A stretch of DNA of 64,000 nt from a virus. How positions within the stretch are numbered: the stretch's first letter is position 1; every line of letters starts with the position of its first letter. Positions 2,620 to 29,962 of this stretch are shown here, in pieces. The position numbers and the translations under genes were made by a program. The notes under the pieces are model-generated. The model was given only the letters and a program-made list of their open reading frames with translations. It had not been told where the DNA came from and did not search any database. The stretch is taken from IMG/VR virus record IMGVR_UViG_3300050343_000214, positions 1 through 64,000 of that record; one strand, written 5' to 3'.

Positions 2620-3303
2620 ATGGCTGCTTTGTCAGATTATCTAGAGTCTGGTGTACTCAATCACTTATTTAGAACAACACCTTTAAGCAAACCGTCTACC
2701 ATTGCCATCGCCTTGACTTCTGATGTAGCCAAAGATTCTGATGACGGCGCTTCAATTCCTGAAATCCCTACTCAGTCCAATACTGGTTCTACCGGCTATG
2801 ATCGCGTAGGCCTTGGCGACCCGTCTCAAAATGGTAATTCCAAGTGGAACAACACGGGAGTAGATGAATTGACTGCATTTGCTATACACAGCGAACAGGT
2901 TGATCATAGTGGATACTTCTACCCTTTATATCTTTCAGAGTCCTCTGCGGAAGCTGCTGACACAGCTAATGGTGCTAATCCAGCAGACGCTGAAGAGTAC
3001 ACGTTTGATCAGTTTGGCTCTACAATATTCTATGCGCCCAAGACTCTTGACGCTAGTGGAGTTGCAAGCAACCCCGGATATCTTCTTTATGAAGGCAATG
3101 GATTTATCAAAAATTCAGCACAAATTGTGTTTGACACAGCTTTAAGTGATTGGGGCTGGGTTTCTGGTATTGCTATTTTAGACAATGAGGTTCATGGGTC
3201 TGGCAATCTGTTAATGTACGCAGAGTTAAATAATCCTAGATATGTTTACACTGGAGATAGTATAAAATTTGATGTCAATGCATTAGAAATTAGTTTTAAT
3301 TAG
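2620..3303 (+). CDS. Conserved virion structural/fibre-associated protein with an ~80 aa insertion
   Basis: Recognisable phage family motifs LSDYLE..LNHL, GYDRV, I.F..A..DWG.V..IAI.D..GSGNLL.YA.L. Confidence 0.65.
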   Translation: MAALSDYLESGVLNHLFRTTPLSKPSTIAIALTSDVAKDSDDGASIPEIPTQSNTGSTGYDRVGLGDPSQNGNSKWNNTGVDELTAFAIHSEQVDHSGYFYPLYLSESSAEAADTANGANPADAEEYTFDQFGSTIFYAPKTLDASGVASNPGYLLYEGNGFIKNSAQIVFDTALSDWGWVSGIAILDNEVHGSGNLLMYAELNNPRYVYTGDSIKFDVNALEISFN

Positions 3304-7953: not shown

Positions 7954-10900
7954 ATGTCAGATAACTTAATCATTATTGCAGATAGAGTCAAAGAGACTAG
8001 CCTAACAGTTGGTACTGGCGATCTTGCTCTAGGTGGAGTCGTTGGTGGCTTTAGTGCATTCAGCGATGTTTACGCTAGCGGAGATGCTCTGTTTTATGCC
8101 GTAACCGATGGAACCAATTATGAGGTTGGCTCTGGTATTTTTCACTATGATCAACCAACTAGTCTGAATTCTCTTCAAAGATTTCCCACTAGAAGTAGTT
8201 TAGCAAATAATGGCTTGGTAGATTTTCCACAAAGTACTAAAGAAGTTTATGTTACATATCCAGCAACCCACTCAGTATACATTGGGTCTGGTGTCGCTGA
8301 TCTTAATTTCCCTCAAGCCAGCGGTCTTGCTTTTTGGTCGTCTAGCAACATACTGAATTATGATAATGATATCGTGTGGGATTCTGACAATCATCGTTTA
8401 GGCATCTTGAGTCCCAATCCGTCTTATGGAATTGAAGTTGGTGGCAATGGATTTGAATCTTCTGTTCAAGCTTCAGGCTTCTACGTAGGTTCATCTGGAG
8501 TTGTTTTTCCTGCACAAAATAATGGTGACGCAACTTATGCTGGTGGAAACCAGCTGTTACACTTTGAGAAAAATCAAACTAATAGTGAAACTGGATCAGA
8601 CTTAGTAATTGAACTAAGTGGCGTTGTTGATCAAGTTATTCTACTCAAGCAACAAAATAAAGGCACTGTTTTTGCTGGACCCGCAAGTGGCTGTCCCGGT
8701 GATTGTGATCCGAACTACCCTGAATTCAGATATTTAACTCTAGAAGACATTCCAGATTTGAGTTCTGTATATTCCAGCTTTAGTGACCTACAAGCAGCTT
8801 CTGGTGCTGTCAATACAGACAGTATCGCGCGTTCCGGTAATCTACAATCTCAAATTGATGACAATCTGACTTCAGTTAATTCTGACGTTAGTACCGTATC
8901 TGGTGCTTTAACTGCCGATGTTAATGCTGTCAAAAATACATTTGACGTTGTAAAAAGTGGTGGTGAGTATGAATTTAGCAACGTTGGAACTTCTACCGAT
9001 TTAAACCCAAATATCTTCTTACAAAAGGGTTTAACCTACTACTTTAATATTGACTCCGCTGGAACTCCTTTCTATGTAAAGACAGCACCAGTTGTTAACA
9101 CAGATGACGTTTTTGATGATGGAGTTACAGGCAATGGTATAACTAGTGGGACTTTAACTTTTGTAGTTCCACAAGACGCCCCAGACATTTTATACTATAC
9201 TGCTTCTAATATTTCTACAGCTTCAGGCATTATATATACTGCTGACATTAATCTTACCTCAGAAAATCTCTACGACAATCTTACTTCTTCTGATTCTCAA
9301 GCCAGTGACAAGATTGCTATTTGGGATTCCAGTGCTAGTGAATACAAAAATATTTCTTTAGAGTCTCTCTTGTTTGCTCCTAGCGGCAATTCATACATTA
9401 AACGAGAAACCATAGCAAGTTCTAGCGCCGTTGGAGATTTGGGAGAAATAACGTTTGATGATACTTACGCATATTTCAAAACGAGTACTGAGTGGAAAAG
9501 GATTAAGATGCTTCCTTTTCAAACTACTACTACCACCACTACAACGAGTACAACCACAACTACAACGTATCCACCATCTTGTACTACTCTGGCTCCAGAC
9601 TGCGGCAATCAAACTTGGAGAACGATAACTGGAGTTGATGTGAATGGATGTCCAGAGTATAGTTCTTGCGCTACAACAACAACTACTACCGCAGCTCCCA
9701 CAACTACGACTACGACTACAACTACTACCTTATCTCCCTCAGACTATTCAAACTTTATATACACTTGGGGTTATAATGGTAATAATCAATTAGGATATAG
9801 AACTAGTGAATTATTCAGTCTATCTCCTACTAAATTGGATATAGGTAATGTTTCTGAGCTATCAGCTGGAGATTTTCATGTTCTTGCAATAGATATATAT
9901 GGTGATCTTTATTCTTGGGGATGGAATATAAATGGTCAAGTTGGTGATGGCACTAAGGTTGACGCTCCAGTTCCCGTTGAGATAGGTTCTGGCAAAGATT
10001 GGAGTTCAGTTGCTGCTGGAGATCATCACAGCGCAGCGATTGATTCAACTGGTGCGCTTTACACTTGGGGTGCTAACAATCTTGGTCAGCTTGGTAACGG
10101 CAATAGAGCCACAGTCTTGACGCCAACTAGAATTGCTGCAAATGTCACTTGGTCTAAAGTGTTCTGCGGCACTGCTCACACTTTAGCTATTAGTTCAATT
10201 GGAGAGCTATACGCTTGGGGATCTAACGAATACGGACAGGTAGGAAATGGAACTTTCACAGACGTTCTGACCCCAACCAAGGTTGGTGTTGAAAACAACT
10301 GGACAACTGTTTCTGCCTACATGCATACTCTAGCTTTAAACTCTGAAGGTCAATGTTTTGCTTGGGGTAGGAATGATGCTGGTCAACTAGGACTTCATCG
10401 CTTAGAAGGCACAAGCCCACTGTTTGAAAACCAAAATTCTCCACAGCAGATTTCTAAGAGAGACACTGGAGGCAACGTTATACTTAACGCTGGAACAGTC
10501 GATAACTGGAAAGCCGTTGCTGCTGGATATCAACACTCTTTAGCTATTAACAATGCTGGAGAACTTTATGTTTGCGGCAACAATGAATTCCGTCAAATAG
10601 GTAGAGCTGGAATCACTCAGACAATAGTGCCGGGAGTCGGAACAAATCCTGCAACTACCACAATAACACAAGAACCAGTTCATACATTCACGCGCCTTGG
10701 ACTAGAAAGAAACTGGAATAAGGTTGCCGCCGGAAACTTCCACAGTATTATAATTAGTGCTGCTGGAGACATGTATGCAATGGGACGAAATAATTATGGA
10801 CAGCTTGGAGATGGAACCACTGATAATAAAGATGTTTTGACTTTGATCTCTACTGATTTTGATTGGGACTTCCCACAAGCTGGTTATGACTTTACTACCG

Positions 10901-11223
10901 CTATAGGAAACTCTAAGATGTCAAATACAACAACTACAGCTCCTCCTTCATCGTTTACAAATTCACTTACAGCAGCTGCAAACGGACAAGCTACTGATAC
11001 GACAAATGGCGTAACCTTCTTAGCCCCTGAAGGTGCTAAGTTAGACTACAATATTCCTTCTACAGTAGAAGATCTTGCTCTAAATACTAACGTCTTCATT
11101 GAAGGCAGCTACGTGTTTACCTTTACAGCCACCGCTGCTTTTGCGGGACAAGTTATTAGGTACACGCCAGTTTCTGGATCTCCTGTAATAGTTACTCTCG
11201 CAAACGGAAGGGTTGATGCATGA
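7954..11223 (+). CDS. Modular fibre/adhesin A: anchor, cupredoxin-like domain, Thr-rich linker, RCC1 propeller, C-terminal module
   Basis: N-terminal ADRVKET..GTG...EVG.G phage fibre anchor. About 7 RCC1 repeats (WG.N..GQLG...AG..H..AI). Poly-Thr tracts. Confidence 0.75.
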   Translation: MSDNLIIIADRVKETSLTVGTGDLALGGVVGGFSAFSDVYASGDALFYAVTDGTNYEVGSGIFHYDQPTSLNSLQRFPTRSSLANNGLVDFPQSTKEVYVTYPATHSVYIGSGVADLNFPQASGLAFWSSSNILNYDNDIVWDSDNHRLGILSPNPSYGIEVGGNGFESSVQASGFYVGSSGVVFPAQNNGDATYAGGNQLLHFEKNQTNSETGSDLVIELSGVVDQVILLKQQNKGTVFAGPASGCPGDCDPNYPEFRYLTLEDIPDLSSVYSSFSDLQAASGAVNTDSIARSGNLQSQIDDNLTSVNSDVSTVSGALTADVNAVKNTFDVVKSGGEYEFSNVGTSTDLNPNIFLQKGLTYYFNIDSAGTPFYVKTAPVVNTDDVFDDGVTGNGITSGTLTFVVPQDAPDILYYTASNISTASGIIYTADINLTSENLYDNLTSSDSQASDKIAIWDSSASEYKNISLESLLFAPSGNSYIKRETIASSSAVGDLGEITFDDTYAYFKTSTEWKRIKMLPFQTTTTTTTTSTTTTTTYPPSCTTLAPDCGNQTWRTITGVDVNGCPEYSSCATTTTTTAAPTTTTTTTTTTLSPSDYSNFIYTWGYNGNNQLGYRTSELFSLSPTKLDIGNVSELSAGDFHVLAIDIYGDLYSWGWNINGQVGDGTKVDAPVPVEIGSGKDWSSVAAGDHHSAAIDSTGALYTWGANNLGQLGNGNRATVLTPTRIAANVTWSKVFCGTAHTLAISSIGELYAWGSNEYGQVGNGTFTDVLTPTKVGVENNWTTVSAYMHTLALNSEGQCFAWGRNDAGQLGLHRLEGTSPLFENQNSPQQISKRDTGGNVILNAGTVDNWKAVAAGYQHSLAINNAGELYVCGNNEFRQIGRAGITQTIVPGVGTNPATTTITQEPVHTFTRLGLERNWNKVAAGNFHSIIISAAGDMYAMGRNNYGQLGDGTTDNKDVLTLISTDFDWDFPQAGYDFTTAIGNSKMSNTTTTAPPSSFTNSLTAAANGQATDTTNGVTFLAPEGAKLDYNIPSTVEDLALNTNVFIEGSYVFTFTATAAFAGQVIRYTPVSGSPVIVTLANGRVDA

Positions 11224-14200
11224 GTATTGCTATAACCGCTCGCCTACAGCTGGTTCAACACTTCGATACTACTTCTAGTATCACTATAGCCGATCTTTCT
11301 GCTGGCGTTCTTGACAATATCAAGCTGATTTACAGGTTGAGTGACACTGGTGGCTACCAAGCTTGGACTAAAGATGGTGGTAAGGCTTTTCCTGCATTAG
11401 AGTATGGAAAGGGGTATTTGTTTGTATCTGAAGATGATGCAACCTTTCCTTACACCGTAAATTCTGATACTGAAAATTTTCCAGCAGAAATTTCAATTTC
11501 AACATCTCCAGCAATTGTTCGATATGTTGGTGATAGCTTGGACTTAAGTGATACAGCAAATATTGCTAACTTTAGCCAGATCTACAAAATATCTAATGGT
11601 CAGTATTCCGCATGGAGTAAAGTTGGAGGTAAAGCCTTTACTACTTTAGACGACGGCGAAACCTATCTTGTAATTAGCGAAGACAGCGCTACTTTTCCAT
11701 ATACATTCTCCACGATTACCGCAGCAAATAATCTACATTTCCTACAAAACAGACATGTTAGAAAAGTAAATTCTAAAACTGGGACTTTAAAAGACTCTGT
11801 TTTTATTTCCACTAATACTTACTCAGCTATTCATGTGGATTCAGTTACTGGTATAATTTATGTGGGTGACAGTGGAGATTTAGTAGTTATTAAACGCGAT
11901 TCTTCTAAGGTTACTAGGAGAGTAAATTTAGCTCAATACGGTCTTTACAACCCAACTACAATCTTCACACAGGCTGGCAAGATATATGTTGGATCTATTC
12001 AGTCTAGTATTATTTGCGAATTAGATGAGACCACATACGACGTAGTGGCTTACGATGTTAACGACAGAGTGGGCGAACAGTTAGATTCCATAAGTGGCGT
12101 ATCTAGTTTTGTTCTCGCTGGAGACCAAATATATGTTTGTCCAGCTAGCAAGACTTACTCTGTGTTACTGGAGAACATTAAGACAATAGTTCCTGATGAC
12201 ACTCTTCCAAATTTCACTTCTGAAAATTCTACTGATGAAAATTTATATTTGTCTTTTTCTGATAATCTGAAATACACAGCAATTGTAGAGCCTTCTCCAC
12301 CACAAGATCCTCCGTCTGTGATACTTTCAGTATATGAAATCTCCTCTGGATCTCTAGTGAGGGTTGGAGACCCCAAGGTTATGAATAATAGAATGGGCAT
12401 AGAATTTGGTTCGATTGTAAAAATTTCTAATGATGGAACTACTGTATTAGTTGCGGCCCCTAAGCTTAATACTTCCAGCGTTAGCAATGGAGCTATCTTT
12501 GTTTATAATTATGTCGGAGGTGTTTGGTCTGAAACTGAAAACTTGCCCAGCGTTATAAATTACGAATTATTTCCTCGAAATATATCGCTATCTACTGATG
12601 GCTCATGGGTAGCGGCATCATCTTCTTTGCATAGTGTTAACAACTCAGTTGAAGAAAATCACGGAATAGTAAGAATTTATAAAAACACTTCCACAACTAG
12701 CGCTAGAACATACTCCTTGTCTAACACCATAGTGGGTTTAGATACAGATAGCAAACTAGGTGAAGAGATTTCTTTAAGCGGGTCTGGATCTGTATTGGCT
12801 GTTTCTAACGAATCCCGATCTTCAATAAATATTTATAAACTCAATAATAGCAATCCCTCGTCCCCTGTTTGGACTCTTCATTATACTATATCTCCACCAA
12901 GTGGTTATTCAGTCAATAATTTTGATTTAAATTATAATGGAAACTCTATAGCTGCTAGCTACTCTGGAGATTACGGTCCAATATACGTGTATGAAGACGA
13001 TGGCAGTTCTTGGGTTATAAATAAATCTGTTATATCTTCATCTTCTGCGCAATATAGAGCAGGAGGGCCAATATCTATAAAAGACGATGGTAATAAAGTA
13101 TGTACTATCTCACAAGTTAACGGTAAAAAGTATACAACTACCTATACTTATGATTCTTTAAATAACACTTGGGAACCCGTCTATAGCGATGAGTATCCAT
13201 CAAACCATGTTTTTCACACCATCTTTACAAATCCAGAAATAGATTCTTTTGCCCACGCCTACAAGGGTAGGATTACTTTTGTTTCATCGCCAAACTCCTC
13301 TCTTTTTAGTTCAATTTCTGTGGCAGGATTTCTGGTAAATAATTTTGGTACACAACGCATTATTGAACCTAAAACGTATGTAGAATGGAAAAAGGAACAG
13401 TAGCATGAGTTACAAGCAGACTATTAGAATACCACTCGAAAATAGGCCAATAGATTCATTTTACGATGAAGACTCTAATCTTGTATATACATTATCTTCT
13501 GACGGGCTAGTTAGTATTATTAATGTTTCTGAACACAAGGTTGTCAAGACAATAATCACTAGAGAAAATCCAGTTACTATGAACTATGATAAAATTAATA
13601 ATAATATATTAGTAGCTCATGCTTCTACATCGTCTACTGGTCTAGGGTTTTTAAGCGTTTTTAATGCTGATACGCAAAAAAGAAGGAGAGACATCTCTTT
13701 AGGATTAAACTGCGTTCCTTCTCAAATTTTAATTGATTATGATTCTCAACTATTACACATTATCTCCACTAATATTACTAATACGGCTAATCAAGATTTT
13801 CAATTCGTTAGGTCTTTTGACCTTTCTGATAATTATGCAGAAGTTCGTACAATTATAATGAAAGACTTTGGTGGTAGTAGGTACTCTAAATATGCTGACA
13901 TACTAAGATCATCCACAGTGGTAACAACGACAACCACCATGCACCCTTTAGCTTCTCAAGATTTGTATGTGGTGCATTCACAAAACTCTAGTATAGATAA
14001 GATGGATACTATCAACGGCACGTTTAGTCAAATTAAATCTTTAGAATCAGGCGCATTTCCACAAAAGATAGCTTTAAACACTTCTTCTAATTTAGCGTTC
14101 ATTACCAATTACAATAAGCCCTATATATCGGTATTAGATATTGCCAATCCTAGCAATTCTATAGCAAATGTACCAGCTGAAAAAGGCGTTTGTGGCATTA

Positions 14201-15216
14201 AGGTTGACTCGTCTAATAATCTTTTATACTATATAAACAACCTTTCTGATGAATTCGTTTGTTATAATTATGCTAACTCAACATTTGTTTCTACTGTAAG
14301 GCTAAAACATTTGCCCACAGATTTAGCCATAGATTTTGTGACGAACAAAGCCTATGTATTAAACAATATACAGCGTAATATGTATGAGATCAATCTTTCA
14401 GACTTCACATACGAAACTTATAATTTTAATTTTGCTCCATTTGCTATGTTTTTAGACTCTAAATCGCAAAATATTTACATATCCGACTTTGATAATGGCG
14501 GTGTATATACTTTTGACAGATTCTCTAAGCAGTATAAAATAATAGATTTTCCTTTTGGCAAGATATTAAATTTATCATATGATTCTAACGCCAATATGTT
14601 ATATTGTATATCAGAATTTGGAAACATCTTTGGCTATCACACGGGGACTAACAAGATAATTGTAAAGTTTATTAATACTGATAATATAATTGATGGGGCC
14701 AACACGGCTAGTGGCCCAACATCTTTAGTTGTAGACAGCGTGGCTAAGTTACTTTATGCGTCAAATTCTTTGGGTAATACGATATCAATATACAATTTGA
14801 AGGACCACACATTTATGAAAAATATTTCTTCAAGCCAGTTTCCAGATGGTTTGCTTTTACATAATAGTCCTACAACGACTACCACGATAGCTCCCACTAC
14901 GGCTACATTAACCATTGGAAGTTCTTCTAATTTTATAGCTGATAACTATGTGGTATTTTATGGTAACGCTGGAGATGAAATAGAATATGAAGAGATTGCC
15001 ACCGTCTCTGATACTAATAGTATGTCTGAAATTATTATCTCAAGGGGAGGCTCTGCATTAAGTAGAGTTACTTTACCAACAGAATATGTAACTGGCGATA
15101 AGCCCTTTAATATTACAATTGCGTCTGGAGCAGACGCTGGAACTTATAACAATCTTAAATTTGGTGATGGGTCGCTGTCCTCTGGGGGCAATTACAGGAG
15201 TATAACTTTATCATGA
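11220..15216 (+). CDS. Modular adhesin B (~1330 aa; ORFs 11220..13403 and 13405..15216 joined): 2 N-modules, YVTN-type propeller with nested FG-GAP-like propeller, second YVTN propeller, C-module
   Basis: Removing one A from the A5 run at 13389-13393 gives VEWKRNSSMSYKQTIRI, matching the earlier blade VVIKRDSSKVTRRVNL, and completes a 4+3 blade propeller. Confidence 0.65.
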
Positions 15217-17639
15217 TTACCCAATATACACAAATATCATTTTACATAGGTCAAAGCACCACACCAATATCTGGACTTAGCAACGTGTCTAATGTTGACA
15301 AGATTTATGACATTGATTCCAACGGGAATTATATAGGCTATTTAGATGACTTTTCAAGCCTGTCTTTCCTTCAGGGGCTAACTGATCTGCAACCTAATAC
15401 TGGATACATCATACACTCAAAGTCTTCAGCCACTCTTCCTTATCAGTTATTTCCAGACGAGACAGAAATTACTACAGACACAGAACTCGCAACTGTTTCT
15501 GGAGTTCTACAGGGCGGCATTGATAATGTAAATTTATTTTCTAACGCTGTTTTTCAAACGTTAATGTCTGCTTCTGGCATTTTAGACGGAGAGATTACGG
15601 TAGTTTCTGGAGACATGAGTTTTGTTTCCGGGGAGTTGATTACTGCGTCTGGCGCTCTTCGAGATTCTATAGACACTCTTGACACTTCAGTAACTGATCT
15701 GGATACTAAATACTTAAATGCGTCTGGTTATCTACAATCTCAGGTAACAAGTAATTCTGGAAACATTGATATCGTATCTGGAATTATGAATACTGATATA
15801 GCTGCGCTCAATGTTGATGTAACAAATTTAGAGAACGATCTTGACTCAGTTTCTGGAGAAATGATTAACAGGGTAGCGGCTTCTGGTCAAGCGGCTCTGG
15901 ATCATTCCGCAACTGTTTCTGGATTATTAGTTGCTTCCTCTGGCAACTTAAGCAATAGAATTTCTGACAATACATCTAATATTGCTTTTGTGTCTGGAGA
16001 AATTATTACTGCTTCTGGCGCTCTCAAAGATCAAATAGATAATATAACTGTAGATTTAGCACCAACAGAAGGCCGCATAGACTTTGTTTCTGGTGAGTTG
16101 ATTACAGCATCTGGAGCCTTGAGAGCAGATATCACCACTGCTGAGTCTGACATAGATTTTGTTTCAGGTGAACTTATCACAGCTTCTGGAGCCTTGAGGG
16201 CAGATGTAGATTTAAAAGCTACGGAGTTAAATTCCGTTGCTAGGTCTGGCAATCTGCAATCTCAGATTACCACTGCTTCTGGTGCTTTACAGGCTGACAT
16301 CGCTACTGCTTCTGGCGCACTGAATGCAGATATGATTGCGAGTGGGACTAGCCTACAATCTCAAATCACCGTTATTGAAAATGACACAGCGATTTTGTCA
16401 ATTTTGCAGGACATAGATGATATTATTGGCGGCACTAATGCTACTGATCTAAATGCTTTTCTGACATCTGTTAACAGCGCTAGCGCATTTGTTTCTGGAG
16501 AAATCATCACGGCCTCTGGAGCTTTGCGAACTGACGTAGACTTGAAAGCTACCGAGGTAGACTCTGTTGCTAGGTCGGGGAACCTACAAGGTCAAATCAC
16601 CACTGCTTCTGGTGCTTTGCAAGCAGACATTGATGCCCTATCCAGCTTAGACCTCGAAGAACTAGGAAACTTGGCTGGTATATTGGGAAGCAGTGCTGAC
16701 TTGGCAGCTTTAATATCTGGTATGGAATCAGACATAGCGACTAACGTATCAGATATAGATTTTGTTTCTGGCGAACTGATTACCGCTTCCGGTGCATTGA
16801 GGTCAGACATTAACGATGTTGATACAGATTTAACATCGCTTTCTGGTCAAATGCTTTCCCTAACTGACGCAGCGGCGCAAAGCTTAAATTTTAATGTTAC
16901 AGTATTTGATGATAACGGTGTTAATAAATATAGGTTTAATGGATGTGGCACAACAGATAGTAATAACCCTGATCTATATCTACATAAAGGTCTCACTTAC
17001 TACCTTAACATAGATGCAGCTACCCATCCGTTTTGGATCAAAACAGAATCTGGTGCAAGTACAAATAACGCTCAAGCAGGGGTTATTAATAATGGCACAG
17101 GAAACGGCACTATAATATTTACTGTACCGCAGGATGCGCCGAGTGTTTTATATTACAATTGTCAGTATCATGAACTTATGGCTGGAAAGATTTACACAGC
17201 TGTCGATAGTGTTCCATCTGTTAACGGCGGGTTAGCAGACACATACTCACCTTTTGGGACTACAACCGTGCCTCCTATTGCTACTACTACTGCTGCTCCA
17301 ACCTTTGATAACGAAGTTACTACAGCTGGTGCTGGGGTTGTGATGGATAATATTTTTGCTACACAGCCAATATCATTTAACACTATTGGTGCAGGATACA
17401 TATTAAGATGGAATTCTCACAATTTATCAAGTATACCAGAAATCTGGGCTACATCTGCTAGAAGGCAAAACATTTACAAAAACGGTACAATTATTGCCTC
17501 TATAGACTTTTATGAACTGGCCTTTTTAAACCAATCTGATAATCCATCATATGAATTTGAACTGCCCGATGGAACCGTTTATTCTGTTAATTGGGGCGCT
17601 GGAACTCAAAATGGTAATGATTACGACGTTAATCTTTAA
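15213..17639 (+). CDS. Fibre C: N-module, SG-rich coiled-coil shaft, cupredoxin-like domain, C-module
   Basis: ATGA overlap start. Six FVSGE[LI]ITASGAL repeats. THPF...YYNCQYHELM motif. Confidence 0.75.
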   Translation: MITQYTQISFYIGQSTTPISGLSNVSNVDKIYDIDSNGNYIGYLDDFSSLSFLQGLTDLQPNTGYIIHSKSSATLPYQLFPDETEITTDTELATVSGVLQGGIDNVNLFSNAVFQTLMSASGILDGEITVVSGDMSFVSGELITASGALRDSIDTLDTSVTDLDTKYLNASGYLQSQVTSNSGNIDIVSGIMNTDIAALNVDVTNLENDLDSVSGEMINRVAASGQAALDHSATVSGLLVASSGNLSNRISDNTSNIAFVSGEIITASGALKDQIDNITVDLAPTEGRIDFVSGELITASGALRADITTAESDIDFVSGELITASGALRADVDLKATELNSVARSGNLQSQITTASGALQADIATASGALNADMIASGTSLQSQITVIENDTAILSILQDIDDIIGGTNATDLNAFLTSVNSASAFVSGEIITASGALRTDVDLKATEVDSVARSGNLQGQITTASGALQADIDALSSLDLEELGNLAGILGSSADLAALISGMESDIATNVSDIDFVSGELITASGALRSDINDVDTDLTSLSGQMLSLTDAAAQSLNFNVTVFDDNGVNKYRFNGCGTTDSNNPDLYLHKGLTYYLNIDAATHPFWIKTESGASTNNAQAGVINNGTGNGTIIFTVPQDAPSVLYYNCQYHELMAGKIYTAVDSVPSVNGGLADTYSPFGTTTVPPIATTTAAPTFDNEVTTAGAGVVMDNIFATQPISFNTIGAGYILRWNSHNLSSIPEIWATSARRQNIYKNGTIIASIDFYELAFLNQSDNPSYEFELPDGTVYSVNWGAGTQNGNDYDVNL
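15616..16810 (+). repeat. Degenerate coding repeats FVSGE[LI]ITASGAL (x6) and VARSGNLQxQITTASGALQAD (x2)
   Basis: Visible in protein and DNA, for example tttgtttctggtgagttgattacagcatctggagccttgag and its variants. Confidence 0.85.
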
Positions 17640-17659
17640 AATAACAAAGGAACCATGCT

Positions 17660-20600
17660 GTGCAAATTACTCAAAGATCTCAATTAATTACTTATAATGA
17701 ATCTTCAGATAGTCTTATTAATAGTCTAGCTGGGTATGCCAATGTAGATAAGATCATAACCTTTTTATCGAATGGTCAATCATCTATTTGGAGAAGCGGC
17801 GCTGGTTTGAACGGTTTTTATAGTTTAGTGTCAGCTGAAGGATATTTGATTATATCTAAGTCTTCAGTAACTCTTCCTTATGAGCTTTATCCGTCTGATG
17901 ACGATATTCCAGATAGCGTGATAATTGATCAAAAGTTTCAAATTGCTACATATTGCGGCCCCGACTTTGATCTTGTTAACAATCAGTTTACCACCGCCCC
18001 ACCAACAACAACACCCGCTCCAACAACAGCCCCACCAACAACAACCGCTGCTCCTTCGTCGTGGAGTCAGGTTGGAAGCACTATAAGCAGAGCCAATACT
18101 AGCTTTGCTGTTAGTGTAGACATGACTGAAAGTTATGGCAATAGACGTATTATAGTTGGTGAACGTTATTACAGCGCTTCAGCTGGGGGCGATAACGGTC
18201 GGGTACGAATATATAAAATTAATAGCGACTCAGTAGATGAGCTTAAAACTTTTGATGGCGGTCAAAGTCAGTTTATAGGAGAGAATGTTGCTATATCTGA
18301 AGATGGGTCGAGTGCAGTTTGGGCTATGGGTGGTAATGAATCTTTTAGAAACCTGACAATTGTAGAAAATTTATTTAATAGCAGCGAAAGCACAACTATT
18401 GTTAACAATGTAGTTGACCAATCCAGTACTAACATCATGCTAGACAACGGCATCAATTTGCCCGGAAAAAGATTGTCATACAGAAATGGTAGAGTTATAT
18501 TTGGCGATCCACGAGATAACTCAACCCGAGGCAGTGTCAAGTTATTATCAAAGTCTCAAGGTCAGTGGGGATCGACAAGTGTTGATCCACCTAATGCTGA
18601 TGCTTCAGCTAATAGAAGTCCTTCTGATGTGTTTGGCGCTAACGTCTCTCAAATGACGGGTGGGTTTATTGTATCAGCTCCCAACGCTGACTTCTTAACC
18701 AACTCAACTAACTTTGAAGGCTTTGATGCTGGCGCTGCATACGCCTACGACTACAATCTAAGTACTGTTAGAATTATTGATGACGACAATGAATTAAATG
18801 ATAATTTTGGTAAAATCAATGATTCCAAGGGAGAGTTTGCGGTACTCGGTGGAAACACAGAGATAAGATGCTATAGAGATCTTAGGGGTGCTGCGGCATC
18901 TTCACAGCTGCAAACATATCATCGCGTTAGAGAAATAATAACACTAAATAGCATAAGAAGTCTAGATTCTGATATTTTGGGCAGCGACTCTATTTCATTT
19001 GCAGATGCTTGCATAAGCTCTACTGGGGAAACGTTGGGGGTCTTGGTTTTCAATTCTTCTCAGCGAAGACTTACTGGGTACATATATAAAGCATCTGGTG
19101 GTAGTAGAAACCCTTATGATAATAGCGCCACATGGACTTTTGATAGAAAAATTTATGATCAAGATCAAATTGAGTATAATGAACCTGCTTTTAATATCAA
19201 GTGTGATGGTAGCGGTGCGTATGTAGTCATCTCCGCTGGCGAAGCTGCGATCAGCTCTCCAGATGATAAAACTGGATACCTTTATGTTTATAGAGATAGT
19301 TCTTTCGAGCCTGAAATTAGAATTAGGCGAAAAGCTAGCGATGGATCTACTAGCACATCGTATTACGAAAGTGCGAACTCTCACATTTACGCCAAAGTTT
19401 CAAAAGTAACTAACGACACAACACTTACTTTTGCAGGTGCTATAGCAACTACTGGTGGAGCCGTTACGTACCAGTGGCAGAAGAGAAATACGTCAGGCTC
19501 TTGGTATAACATTGATGGTGCTAATGGTGCAACACTAACGCCAGACTCTTCGTATAGTAACAATAACTCTCTTTACAGAGTACAGCTGACTGCCAACAAT
19601 TGTGAGCCTACTTTTAGTGATATAATTAGGCTGGAACTAAATCCTCTCTACTTGGTTGGCACAAGTATTACGGATTCTCTTTCTTCTGCTAATATACTCA
19701 CCGGGGCTGTTCAGCTAAGTTTAACTGGGGCTGACGGGACTAGAGCTTTGAAGAGAACTACGAACCGCAATCTTGTTCATGCTAACACTAATGCTACTTC
19801 CAATAATGCTTCGTCTCCTCATAGAATTTTAACACAAGCTATGTCTTTGGAGATAGATGAAACCATTTTGCATGAAGATTATAAAAATATCGTCACCAAG
19901 CCATACCTTAGCGTTCCGTTGGTTGATAACATAGATGCCTCCGTAGAGTGTCCTCGACGAGTTACGAATGGTTCTCAGTTGGTAGATAGCCTTGAGTATA
20001 ACTATGCTTTATCTGTCAAGGTTGATAATTCTAGTATGGGCGATGAACATTTCTTAGTTCAAAGTCAAATTTCTCCACCAAGATTACCTTTTTTCCAACT
20101 AGTAGCAGGAGCGGATACTGGAGGCGAAGGTTTTTCTAAATCAGCTACTGAGCGGTCTAATTCAGAGTTCTATGTTCTTACTAAGCCTTCTCACAATAAT
20201 AATGCAGGTAAAGTTGCTATCAGTCAGATGTTGGCATTGCAACAGCACCGTTTACATGGCACTGTAGGAAATATTCCCGCAGCTGTAGCCGCCTGTAATG
20301 TAAATACTGCTACTGTTTACTTACCCGGTGGTGAACCATATATTGGAACATATAATGGTGTACAAAATCAAGGCAATGCAACTACCGTTAATAAACAGAT
20401 AAAAGTAAATAACTCTACTCAACCTTTTAATAGTTACGGCGCATTTCCAATTACGTCTGAAGACGCGCTAGGCTATACTGTAAGCTTTAACTTGACAAGT
20501 GAAAATGCAGACTTCTCCAGTGACCTTACAGCTGCATATGAAAATTTACATTCTAATAATGCTTTCAGACAAGTTCATACTTTAGTTTCTAATAATAGTC

Positions 20601-23193
20601 AAGACGTTTTTGGTAAAAGTGTTGCATTCTGTAACATGGGTAAGGTATTAGCTATTGGAGCGCCAAGGGTAGACGCAACTGCAAGTGTAATTAAGAATAC
20701 ATATATATTTGAATCAGATTATAACTCTTATGGTGACATTAATTTCCATGCTTCAACAAAGATGCAATCAGATGATCCTCATTTTGGAAAATATGTTTCT
20801 TGTTTGACTGTTGGTTCTAGAAGCTACGTCGCTGTAGCTGGAAACTCAGAGCTACGAATTGCTATTAAAGACTATTCTCTGTTTGGTAACAATGCTTGGA
20901 ACACTGTTGTCTCTGACCTAAACGGCTATGGCTCACACAGGCATTGATCTCACTCTTGCTGGAGAGTTTGATAGCTTGTTTGGAACTTCATCTGGCGATG
21001 CTAATAATGAAAATTTAAAAGTTTATTTGTACGGGACAGACAAGCAGGGGGCGTACCAGATGTTTTGATATCACTAGCTTTAAGAGCGCTGGAAGTTCAA
21101 GCCTAGCCTCCGAAAACGTGGTTGGAGATGTAATTCCTGCAAAGCCTTATGGCGCTGGCGCTGGAAGTACAGTAAAAGCATCTACCTACTATGATCACAT
21201 AAACAATAAATTTGTAAATAGAATTATACGAACCGCAGTGTCTAATACCACTTCTGTTTACTTTGAAGATTCTAACAATCCTTCTTTGGGAGCAAAGAAT
21301 GGTCTAGTTTCTGTGTACGATTTTGATAGCGTTCAAAACAAGTGGGTCCAATATCTGCCAGACATCTCTGACTCTAGCCTTACTGCTGACAAGCAGTTTG
21401 GTACAAATAATGGTAGAAATCTTGGCAGATCCGTCGCGCATCATTATCATACATCTAGAGTGTCCGATCAAACCACAGATGATTTTGTTCGCTACAGTAT
21501 TCTCGCTACTTCCTTAAATTCAGATACATCTGGAATAAGCGCTATGCGTAGAGTCACAGACAAATTAGTTACTACGACCCCAGCGCCCACCACGACTCCA
21601 GCGCCGACTACTATCCCGCCAGAACCTTCTGCGGACATACCTAGATATACTAATACGGCTGGTATGGTCCCTGTAAACTATGCTTCTGACAACATTGGCC
21701 CTCCTGTTTACGATAATAATATTTCTTCTTCAGAAACTCCTAACGATTTAATGCACTTGCCATTATCTTCTATTGTTACATCTGAGGATGGTTACACATC
21801 TGTCATGTGGGACGATAGGTCTAACTATGTAAATATTGATGACAGGAGGACGTATATACTCACTGGATTTCCGAACATTACAGAATATGAGCCAGCTAAT
21901 ATCCAATCTTCTATAGATCCTATTTCTGATGAGTATGAAGTACATACTGAACTGACGGTTGATAGTAACCATAAGAGGAGGGTAGTTGATTGCGCTGTTT
22001 CTGATGGCGGTGAACACATTGCAGTCACTATAGCTCAAACTCCTGCTGGTAAGTCTGCTGGCTTGGAAAAATCTTATGTTTTACTTTATCAAAGAAATCA
22101 AGAAAAACTTGGGGATGGAGCTGATACAGCTCAATTATTAAACAAATTTGTTTATTCTTTACTTAAAACTGCCACACAGTCTATAAACAATTCTTTAGAC
22201 ACAAGTGGGCAAAATCAATCTAATTACATAGATGGTGTAGATTTTAGTGAATACTCATTAGGATACAAAGATGCTCCTACTCCCGGTGAAACAAACCTTA
22301 ACTATCAGAACCGAAGACACAACAGACATAAAGTGATTTGTGTGCTTGTATCTAAACCTTTAAATGATTCTTCTGGGAATTCCTCTACAGCTATGTCTGC
22401 TTACTTGTTTGGCCTTAAGCTTGCTAATCAAGCTTTGACATATCGTGTTCCGGCGGGCTTGGTGGATGGTAAGGATGACGCACAGCAGCTTTATAAGGTT
22501 GACATTCCATATAATAGACTCATGGATGAATCTCTGTTTATAAATGGATCAAGTAGAAACGATTTCATTAGAACTGCTCGCCAACAATCTATGCATATAC
22601 CTAGAATTGTAGATAGGTATTTTGTTAAGAATGATGATGGTGATAGATATGCTCCAGATGATCGAATGTCTGCTGTGGCAGCGCCAACTGGTTACGATGC
22701 TATGGATACGGTCTCAAATGTCATTGGTGATTATACTCATCAAAAATACGACATATATATTTACAGGCTTAATAGGTCTCAACCCGGAACTAACGTTTTT
22801 AATACTCATCACTACGATGTGTTGTCTTGTATAGTTTCTATGAATCAATATGACACAAAGATTCGTACTTATAATACTAATTCTGATACTAGCTTTAAAT
22901 TTAATGGCTCTTCAGTGAATTTTCGTATAAGTCAGACAAATCAGACTGATCAAAACGAAAGCCACCAGTGGAGAACAGGAAAGGTCTCAAGAACTGGCTT
23001 CCTTCCTATTAGCGCAATAGATCAAGAGTATACTGGTAGAAGTGGTCTAACTAGATCAGACTTTGGTGGAGAATCAGACCCTTCAACACCAACTGTTCCT
23101 AATAACAATACTACTGATGCTCCTACTGCAACTACCACCACTGCATACGTAGCGCCGGACAACAACAACAATAATAATGGAGGAGGATATTAA
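17660..23193 (+). CDS. Modular adhesin D (~1840 aa; ORFs 17660..20947 and 21118..23193 joined): N-module plus orphan half-module, FG-GAP-like propellers, Ig-like domain
   Basis: GTG start with SD AAAGGA. Two extra bases (~20920 CTAAACG, ~21065 ATGTTTTGAT) restore ...DLTAMAHTGIDLTLAGEF...YQMFDITSFKSAG... Ig motif VTYQWQK...LYRV. Confidence 0.65.
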
Positions 23194-26100: not shown

Positions 26101-26231
26101 ATAATTTTGGTCAAGCAGGAGTTGGTTCCTCAGAACACGCTCTTGGGGATACTGGAATATATAATTCTGTAACGTCTGTTGGCAAAAACAATTATGGACA
26201 GCTGGGTGACGGTTCTACAAGCACAACTTAA
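23193..26231 (+). CDS. Adhesin E (1012 aa) with LamG/ConA-like segment and C-terminal RCC1 half-repeats
   Basis: SD GGAGG with TAATG coupling. KWYFLHVFSD..LTVAIDGEVV (LamG-like). Ends GADNFGQAG...GKNNYGQLGDG. Confidence 0.65.
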   Translation: MPTPKSNLIKIVKLSENASILEQKSTIATDRGHQYNMHVSNDGARLLTQDAPQSLQDQGASDWSGGGFNDWYNKLNSTSWDQPKSDLREFYNTTQNVYGYAAIDNTKQVFAEQVVNSHSNSTIDISNSAITCLDKSDPVVSTPVIRLGPLSTSDQLSDVHGFMHREPLKSGSDYESAFEHVYNYSSVTDAQLDRWRLHVPAVGGGAVRSQFDRSSGLVIEEGSSTIGLEEHETAFDFSEERLGSRSTQSLPSDLMVLHNYHLKSDRDSVSTPTATDTAGRIHLPDFEENTNKTGYDDGAAMLGEFSIARSRYCDPASNGGNTFLDFSVSLRLQSVTQSAGVPAMRDIYCYSTPFSTFGYGFYEFPNSPTNNYVTTHDMKFSKIQPAYMRFGGISLRSSTGDINKMDQVVLKSNECISLAGSSVGTNGLSYNNSDVADIVISIPEMSTEKWYFLHVFSDVEKLTVAIDGEVVATREHETSLTSQHIYTVGDSASAAKYSKDPNAYRPYINYSNTRANVMGLTPSHGCPPVAAGRSLFAKYPIQNDYNTYDVTTHQLVIFTTSATPRFIYNERPDEIFLMKNLAPHLSDPNKISTSLLSAIGNIIPHFKTLTPATLGLSLRFSTNSTAASAMNIWTGRDSMVLNKSEAWLLHADHDSITDYLSWDQPSYAFGRSNTSEKMLEHDPGKAGINSLLSVYSSSWNGLLNYNDSHNATYGSSRHYIHSTVDISTNTTTSRMRQDSSEQMLYGISPTHLIIAPNRRYGQAVIMSNEKNQTVFYTPFCGHMHSFSLSRLDGRKIINSKEFAKAKHAHFSKMNDTRKKNNSFFATDSENLKDRVNLYGSTKPTQEGLWPTTDSSFSSTTAIEDYVNTGSDLSSNQAFHVGEAPIVGDRSRTQFNKHNSLSDGNVRYYTEQYVSTDYNSDLNDLIVAPFSDYKTATTDNIVTQGVRHDVFFNYKKTALSSMYSVGVVGADNFGQAGVGSSEHALGDTGIYNSVTSVGKNNYGQLGDGSTSTT

Positions 26232-26257
26232 TATAAGAATTTAACAAGGAGTTAGAA

Positions 26258-27736
26258 ATGTCTTTAAAAAATGCACTACTTCCAGATAGCGTTGTCGATG
26301 CAGCGTGTGGTAATGATCACTCTTTAGCTGTAACATCTGGTGGCGAATTATATTCTTGGGGTAACAATGGCTTTGGTCAACTAGGTCATGGAGATCGGAC
26401 TCATAGATCAAGCCCTACTAGGGTTGGTTCAAGAACAGATTGGGTCAGAGTTTTTGCTGGTACAAATCATTCTGTAGCTCAAACCTCTGATGGAAAGTTT
26501 TATGGGTTTGGATTAAATGTATCGAAACAACTTGGGGAAGGTCTCAGTACGACAGCTCAATATGTACAGACCCCAGAACTTTTGCTTTCAGAGCCTACCA
26601 ATTTGTCGAGTACAGAAGCTAGTGATTTGCAGACAATGAGGGGAAATATTAACAGTCTCAGCACTAATGTTTTTTGTGGTCCTAATTGCACTATTTTTAT
26701 TACTTCCAGCACTGTATTTTGCAACGCTCTGTACCTCAGTGCTTCGTATAAAAACAACAACGTCTTCTTGTTGGGAGCTAATCCATCTTTTCTTAATAAA
26801 GTTGTTCAATACAGCTTACCACGCGGCATTGGCGCAATACCAGATGGAACTACTGATTATTCTATAAGTGATAACGGAATTTTATTAAATAGATACAATA
26901 TGTTAGCAATGAACGGTATGGTTAGGTTATGGTCAGATCAATCTTGGAGTGGATACAATAATTATTATAAGAGCAGCTCCCTTGCAAACCTTGGTTATAA
27001 TGCTAAGTTGAGTGAGAGATGGTCTTATACATTTGCCTTTGCTAATCATTTTGTTACAAGAGATTTAAGTTACGGTGGAGAAGCGTTTTACGCCAACATG
27101 GCTGACTTCATGGTTGGGACAAACGCGAATTCGGCTAGCAGTCTTACCATAAGTAGAAATTTATTCACTCATGAAAAATCTTCAGATTATACATACGCCG
27201 CTCAAGATGCTTCCGTAAGTTTAGATGATCATACTGTTTTTGCAATAAGTTCTAATAACGATTTGTTGGCTTCAGTAGCACCAAGAAGATTCATATCTTA
27301 TTCAAATTCATATTTCGACACCTACACTAATTATAATTACATCTCCCAATTGGGAGAGGCTCCATCGGGACCAGACAACACGGGGAGCTATCGCATTAGC
27401 CTTATAAACGATGGGGGCAAAAGTAATCCATATTATGTAAGCAATAATCGCCCTGAGAGTTCACCCCTTTTCAATTCTTCTGGAGGAGGCATGGATGGAA
27501 CTGGAGACCTTCAGCCTTATGGCAATGTGAAGTGTAGCACAGTTTTCAACGGTAGAGATAGAATATATGCATTGGATAATAACGGTATTCTTCTTTCTGC
27601 TGGCAAGGATGATAATTATCTTTTAGGTAGAGATGTTTCTACGTCTACTCCAGCTAATGAGCTACACCCTACAGCTATTCGTAATGTAAAAAGAGTCGTA
27701 TCGGGTCGTCACCATTCCCTTTTCCTACAGAACTAA
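26258..27736 (+). CDS. RCC1-repeat beta-propeller protein F (starts mid-blade)
   Basis: SD AAGGAG. VVDAACGNDHSLAV..GELYSWGNNGFGQLG. Ends VSGRHHSLFL. Confidence 0.75.
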   Translation: MSLKNALLPDSVVDAACGNDHSLAVTSGGELYSWGNNGFGQLGHGDRTHRSSPTRVGSRTDWVRVFAGTNHSVAQTSDGKFYGFGLNVSKQLGEGLSTTAQYVQTPELLLSEPTNLSSTEASDLQTMRGNINSLSTNVFCGPNCTIFITSSTVFCNALYLSASYKNNNVFLLGANPSFLNKVVQYSLPRGIGAIPDGTTDYSISDNGILLNRYNMLAMNGMVRLWSDQSWSGYNNYYKSSSLANLGYNAKLSERWSYTFAFANHFVTRDLSYGGEAFYANMADFMVGTNANSASSLTISRNLFTHEKSSDYTYAAQDASVSLDDHTVFAISSNNDLLASVAPRRFISYSNSYFDTYTNYNYISQLGEAPSGPDNTGSYRISLINDGGKSNPYYVSNNRPESSPLFNSSGGGMDGTGDLQPYGNVKCSTVFNGRDRIYALDNNGILLSAGKDDNYLLGRDVSTSTPANELHPTAIRNVKRVVSGRHHSLFLQN

Positions 27737-27739
27737 AAT

Positions 27740-29962
27740 ATGTTTCCAGAACGTTTTGATAAAATAATACAGTTTTTGCCTAATGGTCAATCTGTGACTT
27801 ACGTTAAGGGCGCTGGTCTTCAGGGAATTACTTACTTGAGGAACGGAGAAACGTATGTCTTTATTAGTGCTAATGATGATGACCACATTGTTTGTGATGG
27901 GGTTGTGGCTACAACGACGACTACTACTACGTCAACTACGACCACAACAACTACAACTACAACTACAACAGCCGCTCCTACCACTTCACTTTCTTTCAGA
28001 AATATTGTAGGCGATAACGGTTGCAATGGTTCGCTTAGTGAATTTCCTAAATGTATTCCTTGTTCACCCACAAGCATTAGCCATGTTGTTAAAACTAAAG
28101 AAGAAGATGGCGTTATTACATTTAAAGTCTCTGTCGGCGTAACTAATCCTAATACTAGTCAACTTCAGTATATATGGGAGTATAAATCCTATACCACAGA
28201 ATGTTCCAGTGGTGATTGGACCCGCTTTGGCACTTCAAATTCCAGCGCCAATCAATACGGAGTTACGTCTGTACCCACTGTAGACTTTAATTATGACTGT
28301 ATTATTGGTCAGTCCTTGAGGATAGAAGTAAGATGTACTGCTCTTATGGGTTGGGAAAACACTCGTACCATTTCAAATAGTTACTATTACAAATGCGATA
28401 ACGAGCTAGATACATCTGAACTTGTTAATAAGTTTGATTTATTAATTAGTACACCAGAAAACGCATCAGAATCTTTCCCCACAGGCTTTACGACAATTAG
28501 TAGAGGTTTTGTGTTAAGCGATAGTAAGGAATACGACTATGATACTGAACAATGTGAATATGATGACTATGTTGAAGGCGGTTATTTACTCTTAAACCAA
28601 CCATCTGACATGTTAGGAGATCGTAATCTTCTTCAATTACCGTTTTCTGAATCAACTAAAGAAGCTATAAAACAAATAGGTCAAGTCGAATGGCTTATAA
28701 GAAGACCCACCGATACGCCTCTTGCAAGTGATAGCGCATCTACTCTAAAAACATTACCAAACAACCAGAGATCGTTCCAAACCTTATCGTCTACTACAGC
28801 GCTCAATAATGATAACGATCCGACTACTTTAAATTTGGCATCTATTAATTTTCCTAGTTTGTATACAGGTTATTACGAAATAGTGGCTAAAGTTCGACTT
28901 GGCACTGAAACGTGCTACTCCAAAATTGTTCCAGTTTTTCTCAATAATTATCTCAGTTCACGGATAAGTATGTATGACACAAGCCGTCCTGATTTAATTT
29001 CTTTAGGTTATCACGGTCATCAAAAACATTGCGCTTACACGGGGAATTATCCTACTGTCGGCGCGCCTAGTATAACAGCAGACGTTGCTATTATTAATGG
29101 TACGGCACCCAGCGCTGGTTTGCCAAGTAGTGATACACAAAATGTTTATGTAGCATCAAGAATAGGAGACAGGAGTTATGGCGCTTTGGAGCATCTATTT
29201 CCTATAAGCTCAGTTTATGTTGACGGAAATTATGTTACGAGAAAAAATTTGAAAGTTGTGTATAACCAAAAAAATAATTCTTTGTCGTATAATAATTCGT
29301 ATTTTATACATGAGGTGTCGGATTCGGAAAATACGAATGTGCTTGCATCTGTTCAGTCGTTAGTAACTTCAGTCTGGGGATTTTATGATCCTCAAAATCC
29401 TATCTGTGCGTTTGGAAGATATTACCCTCACCCTACGATAAGACCTTGGAATTATGGTGTTTTAGCTCCACTTAAACGTGGCTCTTACTATAGTTCCAGC
29501 GGGTACGGTTCTTATCCGGCACAGATATCTGACTTAACTGGTGGTAACACCTTAAAAATAAATTTAAGAACAGCGTTCACTTACAATGACGACGATAAAC
29601 CAGAAGCTCACGATTTAGTTGTTGTTCCACACATGCAGTATAGTAATGATGGGGGTGGTACTTGGAGAAATGCCGGGGGTCTGCAATCGGTTGTCAAGAA
29701 AAACAATAAATTTTGGCAGGCAACTTTTCGTAATCCTTATTCTTATGGTGCTAGTTATTGGGATATTTTTGGATGGCGTAGTGGCACTCTGATCCGTTAC
29801 ACCCCCGTAGGTTATGCAGGAGTTCTCGGAGGATCTTATGATAAAGATATATACAACGCTGGTGGCTATCCGGGTCTTGCGATTAGGCAGTTAACAGATC
29901 CATCTATTCCTATTAATTCTAGGGTTCATTCTGTATTTTCACAGCCATTTTCTTTACCATAG
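27740..29962 (+). CDS. Adhesin G: truncated N-module, poly-Thr linker, Cys-containing Ig-like domains
   Basis: N-terminus FDKIIQFLPNGQS..GAGLQG..L..GETY is homologous to the N-module. LQYIWEY...IEVRC Ig-like pattern. No clear SD; starts 3 nt after the in-frame TAA of 26258. Confidence 0.65.
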   Translation: MFPERFDKIIQFLPNGQSVTYVKGAGLQGITYLRNGETYVFISANDDDHIVCDGVVATTTTTTTSTTTTTTTTTTTTAAPTTSLSFRNIVGDNGCNGSLSEFPKCIPCSPTSISHVVKTKEEDGVITFKVSVGVTNPNTSQLQYIWEYKSYTTECSSGDWTRFGTSNSSANQYGVTSVPTVDFNYDCIIGQSLRIEVRCTALMGWENTRTISNSYYYKCDNELDTSELVNKFDLLISTPENASESFPTGFTTISRGFVLSDSKEYDYDTEQCEYDDYVEGGYLLLNQPSDMLGDRNLLQLPFSESTKEAIKQIGQVEWLIRRPTDTPLASDSASTLKTLPNNQRSFQTLSSTTALNNDNDPTTLNLASINFPSLYTGYYEIVAKVRLGTETCYSKIVPVFLNNYLSSRISMYDTSRPDLISLGYHGHQKHCAYTGNYPTVGAPSITADVAIINGTAPSAGLPSSDTQNVYVASRIGDRSYGALEHLFPISSVYVDGNYVTRKNLKVVYNQKNNSLSYNNSYFIHEVSDSENTNVLASVQSLVTSVWGFYDPQNPICAFGRYYPHPTIRPWNYGVLAPLKRGSYYSSSGYGSYPAQISDLTGGNTLKINLRTAFTYNDDDKPEAHDLVVVPHMQYSNDGGGTWRNAGGLQSVVKKNNKFWQATFRNPYSYGASYWDIFGWRSGTLIRYTPVGYAGVLGGSYDKDIYNAGGYPGLAIRQLTDPSIPINSRVHSVFSQPFSLP

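Follow-up and report, generated by a model that had tools for sequence, protein, structure and literature searches.

A candidate docking pair of terminal modules in consecutive fibre genes of a long-tailed phage

The virus record IMGVR_UViG_3300050343_000214 from IMG/VR is a single contig of 105,801 bp, and its first 64 kb (64,000 nucleotides, here termed the window) was analysed for the organization of a block of consecutive fibre genes. The proteins of this block share two small modules: an N-module of ~85 amino acids (aa), and a C-module of ~90–110 aa that lies at the extreme C-terminus after a Thr/Pro linker. An earlier reading of the DNA made without database searches (the sequence-only reading) had proposed a plug-and-socket logic, in which the N-module of one fibre subunit binds the C-module of the subunit encoded before it. 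The genes and modules concerned are listed below with window coordinates; bit scores are from a profile hidden Markov model (HMM) of the N-module.

7954..11223, + strand: g7954, an open reading frame of 1089 aa with a C-module and no N-module; starts array 1
10945..11220, + strand: C-module of g7954 (aa 998-1089), placed by jackhmmer and by alignment A4
11220..13403, + strand: g11220, 727 aa, with tandem N-modules and a propeller-like payload, no C-module; ends array 1
11220..11504, + strand: N-module copy 1 of g11220, 118 bits
11490..11759, + strand: N-module copy 2 of g11220, 109 bits
13405..15216, + strand: g13405, 603 aa, with a lactonase/YVTN-type beta-propeller, Thr linker and C-module, no N-module; starts array 2
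14899..15213, + strand: C-module of g13405 (aa 499-603), from the AlphaFold2 model and HMM matches to g15213-like C-termini
15213..17639, + strand: g15213, 808 aa, with an N-module, long repeat stalk, cupredoxin-like domain, Thr/Pro linker and C-module
15213..15500, + strand: N-module of g15213, 124 bits
17301..17636, + strand: C-module of g15213 (aa 697-808), from hhalign against the C family (Prob 86-92%)
17660..20947, + strand: g17660, 1095 aa, GTG start, with an N-module and a large payload, no C-module; ends array 2
17660..17956, + strand: N-module of g17660, 129 bits
27755..27922, + strand: short-form N-module of g27740 (aa 6-61), 54 bits over profile positions 29-93

The stretch 11220-15216 had been taken for one gene; it consists of two open reading frames, 11220-13403 and 13405-15216, which lie in different frames with TAG plus one base between them. 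Related contigs come from marine metagenomes (L003-L010, among them a TARA contig of 112 kb) and from an IMG/VR virus of 186 kb (L002), and g11220 and g13405 are separate in L003, L004, L005, L007 and L010. With the gene model corrected, the window therefore holds two arrays, g7954 followed by g11220, and g13405 followed by g15213 and g17660, in place of the single chain that had been drawn through the wrong middle gene. That the middle genes carry both modules holds for g15213 only; g11220 has the N tandem alone (hhalign of its C-terminus against the C family gives Prob 0.5%) and g13405 the C-module alone. The first gene, g7954, was correctly described as having only the C-module, as the HMM finds no N-module in it. 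Its N-terminus, described as a virion anchor, matches no family, but is the best-conserved part of the protein in distant orthologues; it is a candidate virion anchor that would hold the first array on the virion. At the g11220/g13405 junction (13386-13407) there is an A5 run, TGG AAA AAG GAA CAG TAG C ATG, where a +1 slip would fuse the two frames. Fusion by frameshift at this run, near 13389, was considered and rejected: the offset is +1 in five contigs, but in L010 both open reading frames share one frame and are divided by a stop, which makes a conserved fusion by frameshift unlikely.

The proteins have a beads-and-linkers layout. In g7954 a conserved N-terminal region is followed by a stalk with a degenerate cupredoxin-like domain and by poly-Thr linkers round a four-Cys knot; the distal part comprises an RCC1 propeller, a Thr linker and the C-module, with TTTTAPPSS (10927-10953) as the linker ahead of it. 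Further linkers are found in g17660 (Thr/Pro, 17990-18061) and after the N-module of g27740 (poly-Thr, 27908-27988). Each C-bearing gene is coupled to the N-bearing gene that follows: at 7954/11220 and 13405/15213 stop and start overlap as ATGA, and at 15213/17660 a gap of 20 nt separates the genes.

The N-module is present in six copies in five genes of the 105.8-kb genome. In a BLAST comparison of the nine large proteins with one another, the N-termini of g11220 (twice), g15213, g17660 and g27740 are linked, and the full-length copies reach Smith-Waterman scores 7 to 25 standard deviations over shuffles. A five-copy HMM run on the six-frame genome translation recovers all five copies, as the sequence-only reading had placed them (that of g27740 being partial), and only one more: a minus-strand short form at about 98.8 kb, which starts a Hint-domain gene. 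The conserved pattern is I-x3-Q-x3-Y-x-G ... I-x5-G-x4-W ... L-x4-GY-x-I-x-S ... PY; the short forms (g27740 and the Hint-domain gene) are without the first two strands of the fold, and that of g27740 has short-form homologues in P0050, P0056 and P0069. Among 1.84 billion cluster-representative proteins the HMM detects 114 representatives at E<1e-3, all from metagenomes and none with a name, of which 92 have the module starting at or before residue 15 and 80 have it as a tandem pair. Internal N-modules with flanking Pro/Thr linkers occur in L002, L011 and L012, and the N-modules are therefore modules in their own right, beyond mere N-terminal extensions. The AlphaFold2 model of the tandem, made from a 38-row alignment, has a predicted local distance difference test score (pLDDT) of 89 and a predicted template modelling score (pTM) of 0.83; each N-module is predicted as all-beta, with about seven strands and one short helix of 4 residues. 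The Hint-domain gene lies outside the window (~98000-98900, minus strand) and codes for a short-form N-module and then a Cys-rich Hint-domain protein; it is frameshifted in this record, either by a sequencing indel or as a pseudogene, and its homologue P0057 (782 aa) is intact.

The C-module similarity had been judged by eye in the C-termini of g7954, g13405 and g15213. Compared pairwise by BLAST and Smith-Waterman these three show no significant similarity; through profiles they are homologous. An HMM built from orthologues of the g13405 C-module matches g15213-like C-termini (P0041 at 41 bits, P0029 at 31, P0019 at 25), an HMM of the g7954 C-module matches the C-terminus of L002_8734 at 29 bits, and jackhmmer started from either g7954 or g13405 reaches the same set, also at an inclusion E of 1e-4. 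The C-terminus of g15213 is the most divergent member of the family, and is joined to it by hhalign (Prob 91.8%, P 7e-7, 71 columns reaching both C-termini); its positional orthologue P0019 is a robust member, and in control alignments six further proteins of the block, represented by their C-terminal 110 residues, give Prob 0.5% or less. The similarity is thus borne out once orthologues are added; pairwise evidence alone would have failed. In alignment A4 (14 rows) the members share a common start T-x-T-L-T, a strand pair V-x-F-x-G-x-x-G-D, and an end Y-x-x-x-F-x-x-G ... I-D-L. The AlphaFold2 model of the g13405 C-module, also from 14 rows, has pLDDT 95 and pTM 0.86, with a predicted fold of nine strands and one short helix. 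N and C were also considered as one fold or family, which was rejected (hhalign Prob 0.2%).

Neither module matches an entry of Pfam, NCBIfam, PHROGs or the PDB sequences, in agreement with the earlier statement that no named family is known for the pair; tblastn of the N tandem finds nothing in GenBank phages, a search of ESM Atlas returns unnamed clusters only, and the predicted folds have no match among solved structures. By these comparisons the N- and C-modules are a new domain pair without a database name, with an N family confined to metagenomes.

Contigs L003, L005, L007-L009 and L010 have preserved the order C, N-N ... C, N...C, N, and their proteins share 20-80% identity with those of the window. 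Three other loci follow the same C-then-N rule with quite different payloads (LRR, leucine-rich repeat):

L002/G001: 8734 (C), then 10001 (N...C), then 11474 (BspA-type LRR ... internal N-N)
L011/G002: 5105 (C), then 6420 (FGE-sulfatase, Pro/Thr linker, N-N, RCC1)
L012/G003: 7483 (C), then 8693 (FGE-sulfatase, Pro/Thr linker, N-N, C), then 10860 (divergent N)

Two further contigs, L013 and L014, were fetched by an N-only query, and in both the gene immediately upstream ends in a C-module, as had been predicted beforehand. With one locus counted per lineage (the window group, L002/G001, L011/G002, L012/G003 and L013/L014), robust C-module genes are directly followed by an N-module gene in 8/8 cases in five lineages, so that C-then-N adjacency holds in every case observed. 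Within-locus shuffles of gene labels reach 8 adjacencies in 0/100,000 trials; permuting the N- and C-genes alone still leaves a chance of ~0.004 (arithmetic on the label sets). In each array the first gene has C without N and the last gene N without C; a chain needs such ends, and they are not predicted by simple tandem duplication. The two modules are also not independent in occurrence: 15 of the 114 N-module representatives carry a C-module as well, and searches of the whole records of G001 and G002 (both rated 100% complete) place the modules only in the same few adjacent genes, with two C-bearing genes and two robust N-bearing ones in G001. Conservation is usually higher in the modules than in the payloads, and is highest in the modules for g11220 (64% vs 30% identity to L005) and for g13405 (50% vs 36%).

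Some proteins are made of little besides the modules. P0078, P0093 and P0060 are payload-free N-N-C proteins, and P0090 has a signal peptide and then a C-module joined directly to N-N. P0089, P0090 and P0106 are small signal-peptide proteins built only of N-like modules, plus the C-module in P0090; none has a match in the prokaryote genome collection. Their make-up suggests that the modules are also used in secreted, possibly cellular, proteins.

On comparative genomics, the N- and C-modules are read here as a matched docking pair that serves as serial fibre connectors, with a probability of about 0.5. Each module is a self-folding domain bounded by linkers rich in Thr and Pro. The distal C-module of a fibre subunit would dock onto the N-module, or N tandem, of the next gene's product, and neighbouring genes would thus yield a head-to-tail appendage of different proteins, each with its own binding payload: RCC1 or YVTN-type propellers in this phage, and lectin-like FGE-sulfatase, LRR or fn3 domains in other viruses. 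The two arrays of this phage would be assembled as g7954 to g11220, and g13405 to g15213 to g17660. In such an appendage N and C would touch, and the diverged paralogues would form specific N:C pairs. A wider reading, put forward tentatively as the less probable one, takes the modules as a reusable connector system of new folds, in which diverged cognate pairs would set the order of assembly and any number of different adhesins could be strung in a defined chain; N-N-C proteins would be extension pieces, and cells or their secreted proteins, suggested as users by the signal peptide on the C-N-N protein P0090, may share the connectors.

Several observations weigh against docking. Tandem-duplicated N...C paralogues give C-then-N order automatically, and therefore only the ends of the arrays are informative. 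The loci outside the window were all found through N-module queries, which biases the sampling of the rule that a C-module implies an N-module downstream. C-only searches gave only orthologues or nothing: the C-module profile run against 5.8 billion proteins (word-indexed search) finds only orthologues of the window's own three genes, and C-only and mixed alignments used as queries for viral or genome contigs either return no matches or offer no conserved stretch that could be used. The four non-window lineages may share ancestry, and the 8 adjacencies are then not 8 independent events; detection of the weak variants N' and C' of L002 and L011 is only marginal. Within this phage, the short-form N-modules, in g27740 and in the Hint-domain gene, have no C-module upstream, g13405 is without an N-module and without a recognisable anchor, and in g7954 and g15213 the C-module is less conserved than the remainder of the protein.

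The strongest rival, thought unlikely, is that the N-module anchors each fibre separately at one repeated virion site, with the C-module as a distal knob for receptor binding or folding and the C-then-N order arising incidentally when an ancestral N...C fibre gene was duplicated in tandem. Fibre anchors of phages usually stand at the protein start, as the N-module does in 92/114 members, and a common anchor would be shared by several paralogues of one genome, as the N-module is; in g7954 and g15213 the C-module evolves more quickly than the remainder of the protein, as receptor-binding tips do. Such an anchor leaves unexplained the arrays that start without N and end without C, payload-free N-N-C proteins such as P0078, the N-tandems that lie internally behind large N-terminal domains, and the C-module being the best-conserved part of g13405.

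It is improbable, more so than a common anchor, that the C|N junction is merely the split site of a giant multi-domain fibre gene, or a recombination point for payload cassettes, with the order inherited and no direct binding. In favour of this, P0090 has C joined directly to N in one chain, payloads vary widely among lineages as the junction modules persist, and in L007/L009 the payload of the tandem-N gene has been replaced. The products of a split gene must still assemble, however, and a C:N contact is the simplest consequence. Conservation is moreover seen in the proteins: when 50 kb of the window was compared with GenBank phages by megablast, no matching DNA was found, and module identity between lineages, at 20-40%, is too low for homologous recombination. 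The weakest alternative, and a doubtful one, is that both modules are small glycan- or surface-binding domains on Pro/Thr linkers, akin to carbohydrate-binding modules, that lend avidity to the payloads and have no role in assembly: beads on a string of Thr/Pro linkers resemble secreted glycoside hydrolases, and P0089, P0090 and P0106 are small signal-peptide proteins of these modules only, but no carbohydrate-binding family matches in Pfam or among solved folds, and neither the strict terminal positions nor the C-then-N order across gene boundaries is predicted.

A docking pair of this kind would have partial counterparts in known systems. The long tail fibre of T4 is built from gp34, gp35, gp36 and gp37, which are encoded by consecutive genes and joined end to end. 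At the fibre tip of T2/S16/PP01-like phages (gp37-gp38) sits gp38 (PMC12892980). The likeness is that a downstream gene supplies the subunit which caps the distal, C-terminal tip of the upstream product and is responsible for receptor binding. The differences are that the modules are unrelated in sequence (no gp34-38 family is assigned to them by PHROGs), and that each T4 joint is unique, whereas here one homologous pair would recur at up to three joints of a single virion, with Thr/Pro linkers. In Klebsiella phages the anchor-branch receptor-binding proteins use a T4gp10-like branching domain and a conserved docking peptide (PMC6872550, PMC13352976); these too have a virion-anchored first protein, a second protein that docks by a conserved N-terminal element, and exchangeable payloads. 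There, however, the plug is a short docking peptide and the T4gp10-like socket lies near the N-terminus of the first protein, whereas here both partners are ~90-aa folded domains, the socket would form the very C-terminal end, and the joints would follow in series instead of branching. The podophages GP4, VP1 and A1002 have chain-like fibres of gp80-type dimers strung on a 'rope' protein (PMC13730344). This is likewise a multi-protein chain-like appendage, held by beta-sheet augmentation, and a gp80-like gene is present in the window (2620-3303); GP4-type fibres differ in having many copies of one small dimer on one rope, where each link here is a different large protein, and PF23140 (the gp80-type dimer) matches neither the N- nor the C-module.

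The comparison with cohesin and dockerin made in the sequence-only reading holds for the logic only: plug-and-socket modularity, exchangeable payloads, linkers rich in Pro and Thr, and several diverged pairs that could confer specificity. No homology is apparent. Dockerin (PF00404) is a ~70-aa duplicated calcium-binding helical domain of F-hands, and has no Pfam match, even at E up to 10, in the N-module, whose model consists of beta strands and one 4-residue helix; cohesin (PF00963) is a ~140-aa nine-strand jelly-roll, and for the ~100-aa C-module it appears neither in Pfam nor among the fold matches.

The serial or chained fibre principle is already known; the present case would differ in having a homologous folded pair, with Thr/Pro linkers, reused at several joints across uncultured lineages. 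Ordered assembly of many receptor-binding proteins is known in few cultured models, each with one-off joints; the present modules look like a connector pair of general and repeated use among marine phages, uncultured and 47 to 238 kb in size. If the docking reading is true, fibre architecture could be read from gene order in metagenomic phage genomes, the swapping of RCC1, lectin-like, LRR, fn3 and propeller domains between viruses would be explained, and the modules would provide small orthogonal docking domains for protein engineering. The reusable connector system would, if true, be a virion counterpart of the cellulosome and a plug-and-play kit for multi-specific fibres.

The fibre block lies between the capsid (head) genes and the tail genes. 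The surrounding features of the window are:

994-1461: cement protein (PF22758)
1493-2506: major capsid protein, a distant relative of the phage G head protein
2620-3303: gp80-like 'fiber I' gene, 227 aa, immediately following the capsid gene (PF23140, E 1e-20)
3330-29962: run of large genes on one strand
35248-39774: tape measure protein, 1508 aa, among tail genes

As the tail genes include a tape measure protein, the phage is long-tailed. Its capsid protein has a sole match among GenBank phages, Bacillus phage G, at 21% identity.

The payloads had been listed as RCC1, YVTN, FG-GAP, Ig, LamG and cupredoxin. RCC1 is confirmed by a Pfam match in g7954 at E 1e-85, and there is support for a propeller of the YVTN/lactonase type; the case for FG-GAP is weak, and no cupredoxin, Ig or LamG domain is found in the fibre proteins by Pfam at E 0.01 or better. 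A cupredoxin-like domain, without a match in Pfam or the PDB sequences, is nonetheless visible in g15213 (window 16980-17200, aa ~590-660), with an apparent full type-1 copper ligand set: the His in 'HPFWIKT', and C-x2-H-x2-M in 'YYNCQYHELMAG'. The ligand pattern is kept in the orthologues P0019, P0029, P0031 and P0041, and the degenerate copy in g7954 (window ~8990-9270) is without ligands. Matches to phrog_677 ('baseplate wedge tail fiber connector') are limited to the stalk and cupredoxin region of g15213 and g7954, and do not include the modules. The four-Cys mini-domain of g7954 comprises ~34 aa (aa 539-572, 9568-9669), between poly-Thr linkers at 9523-9567 and 9670-9729. Farther along the block, RCC1 repeats at 26068-27736 end the gene 23193-26231 and start the gene 26258-27736, across a 26-nt gap with AAGGAG; it seems that one RCC1 propeller is shared between the two products.

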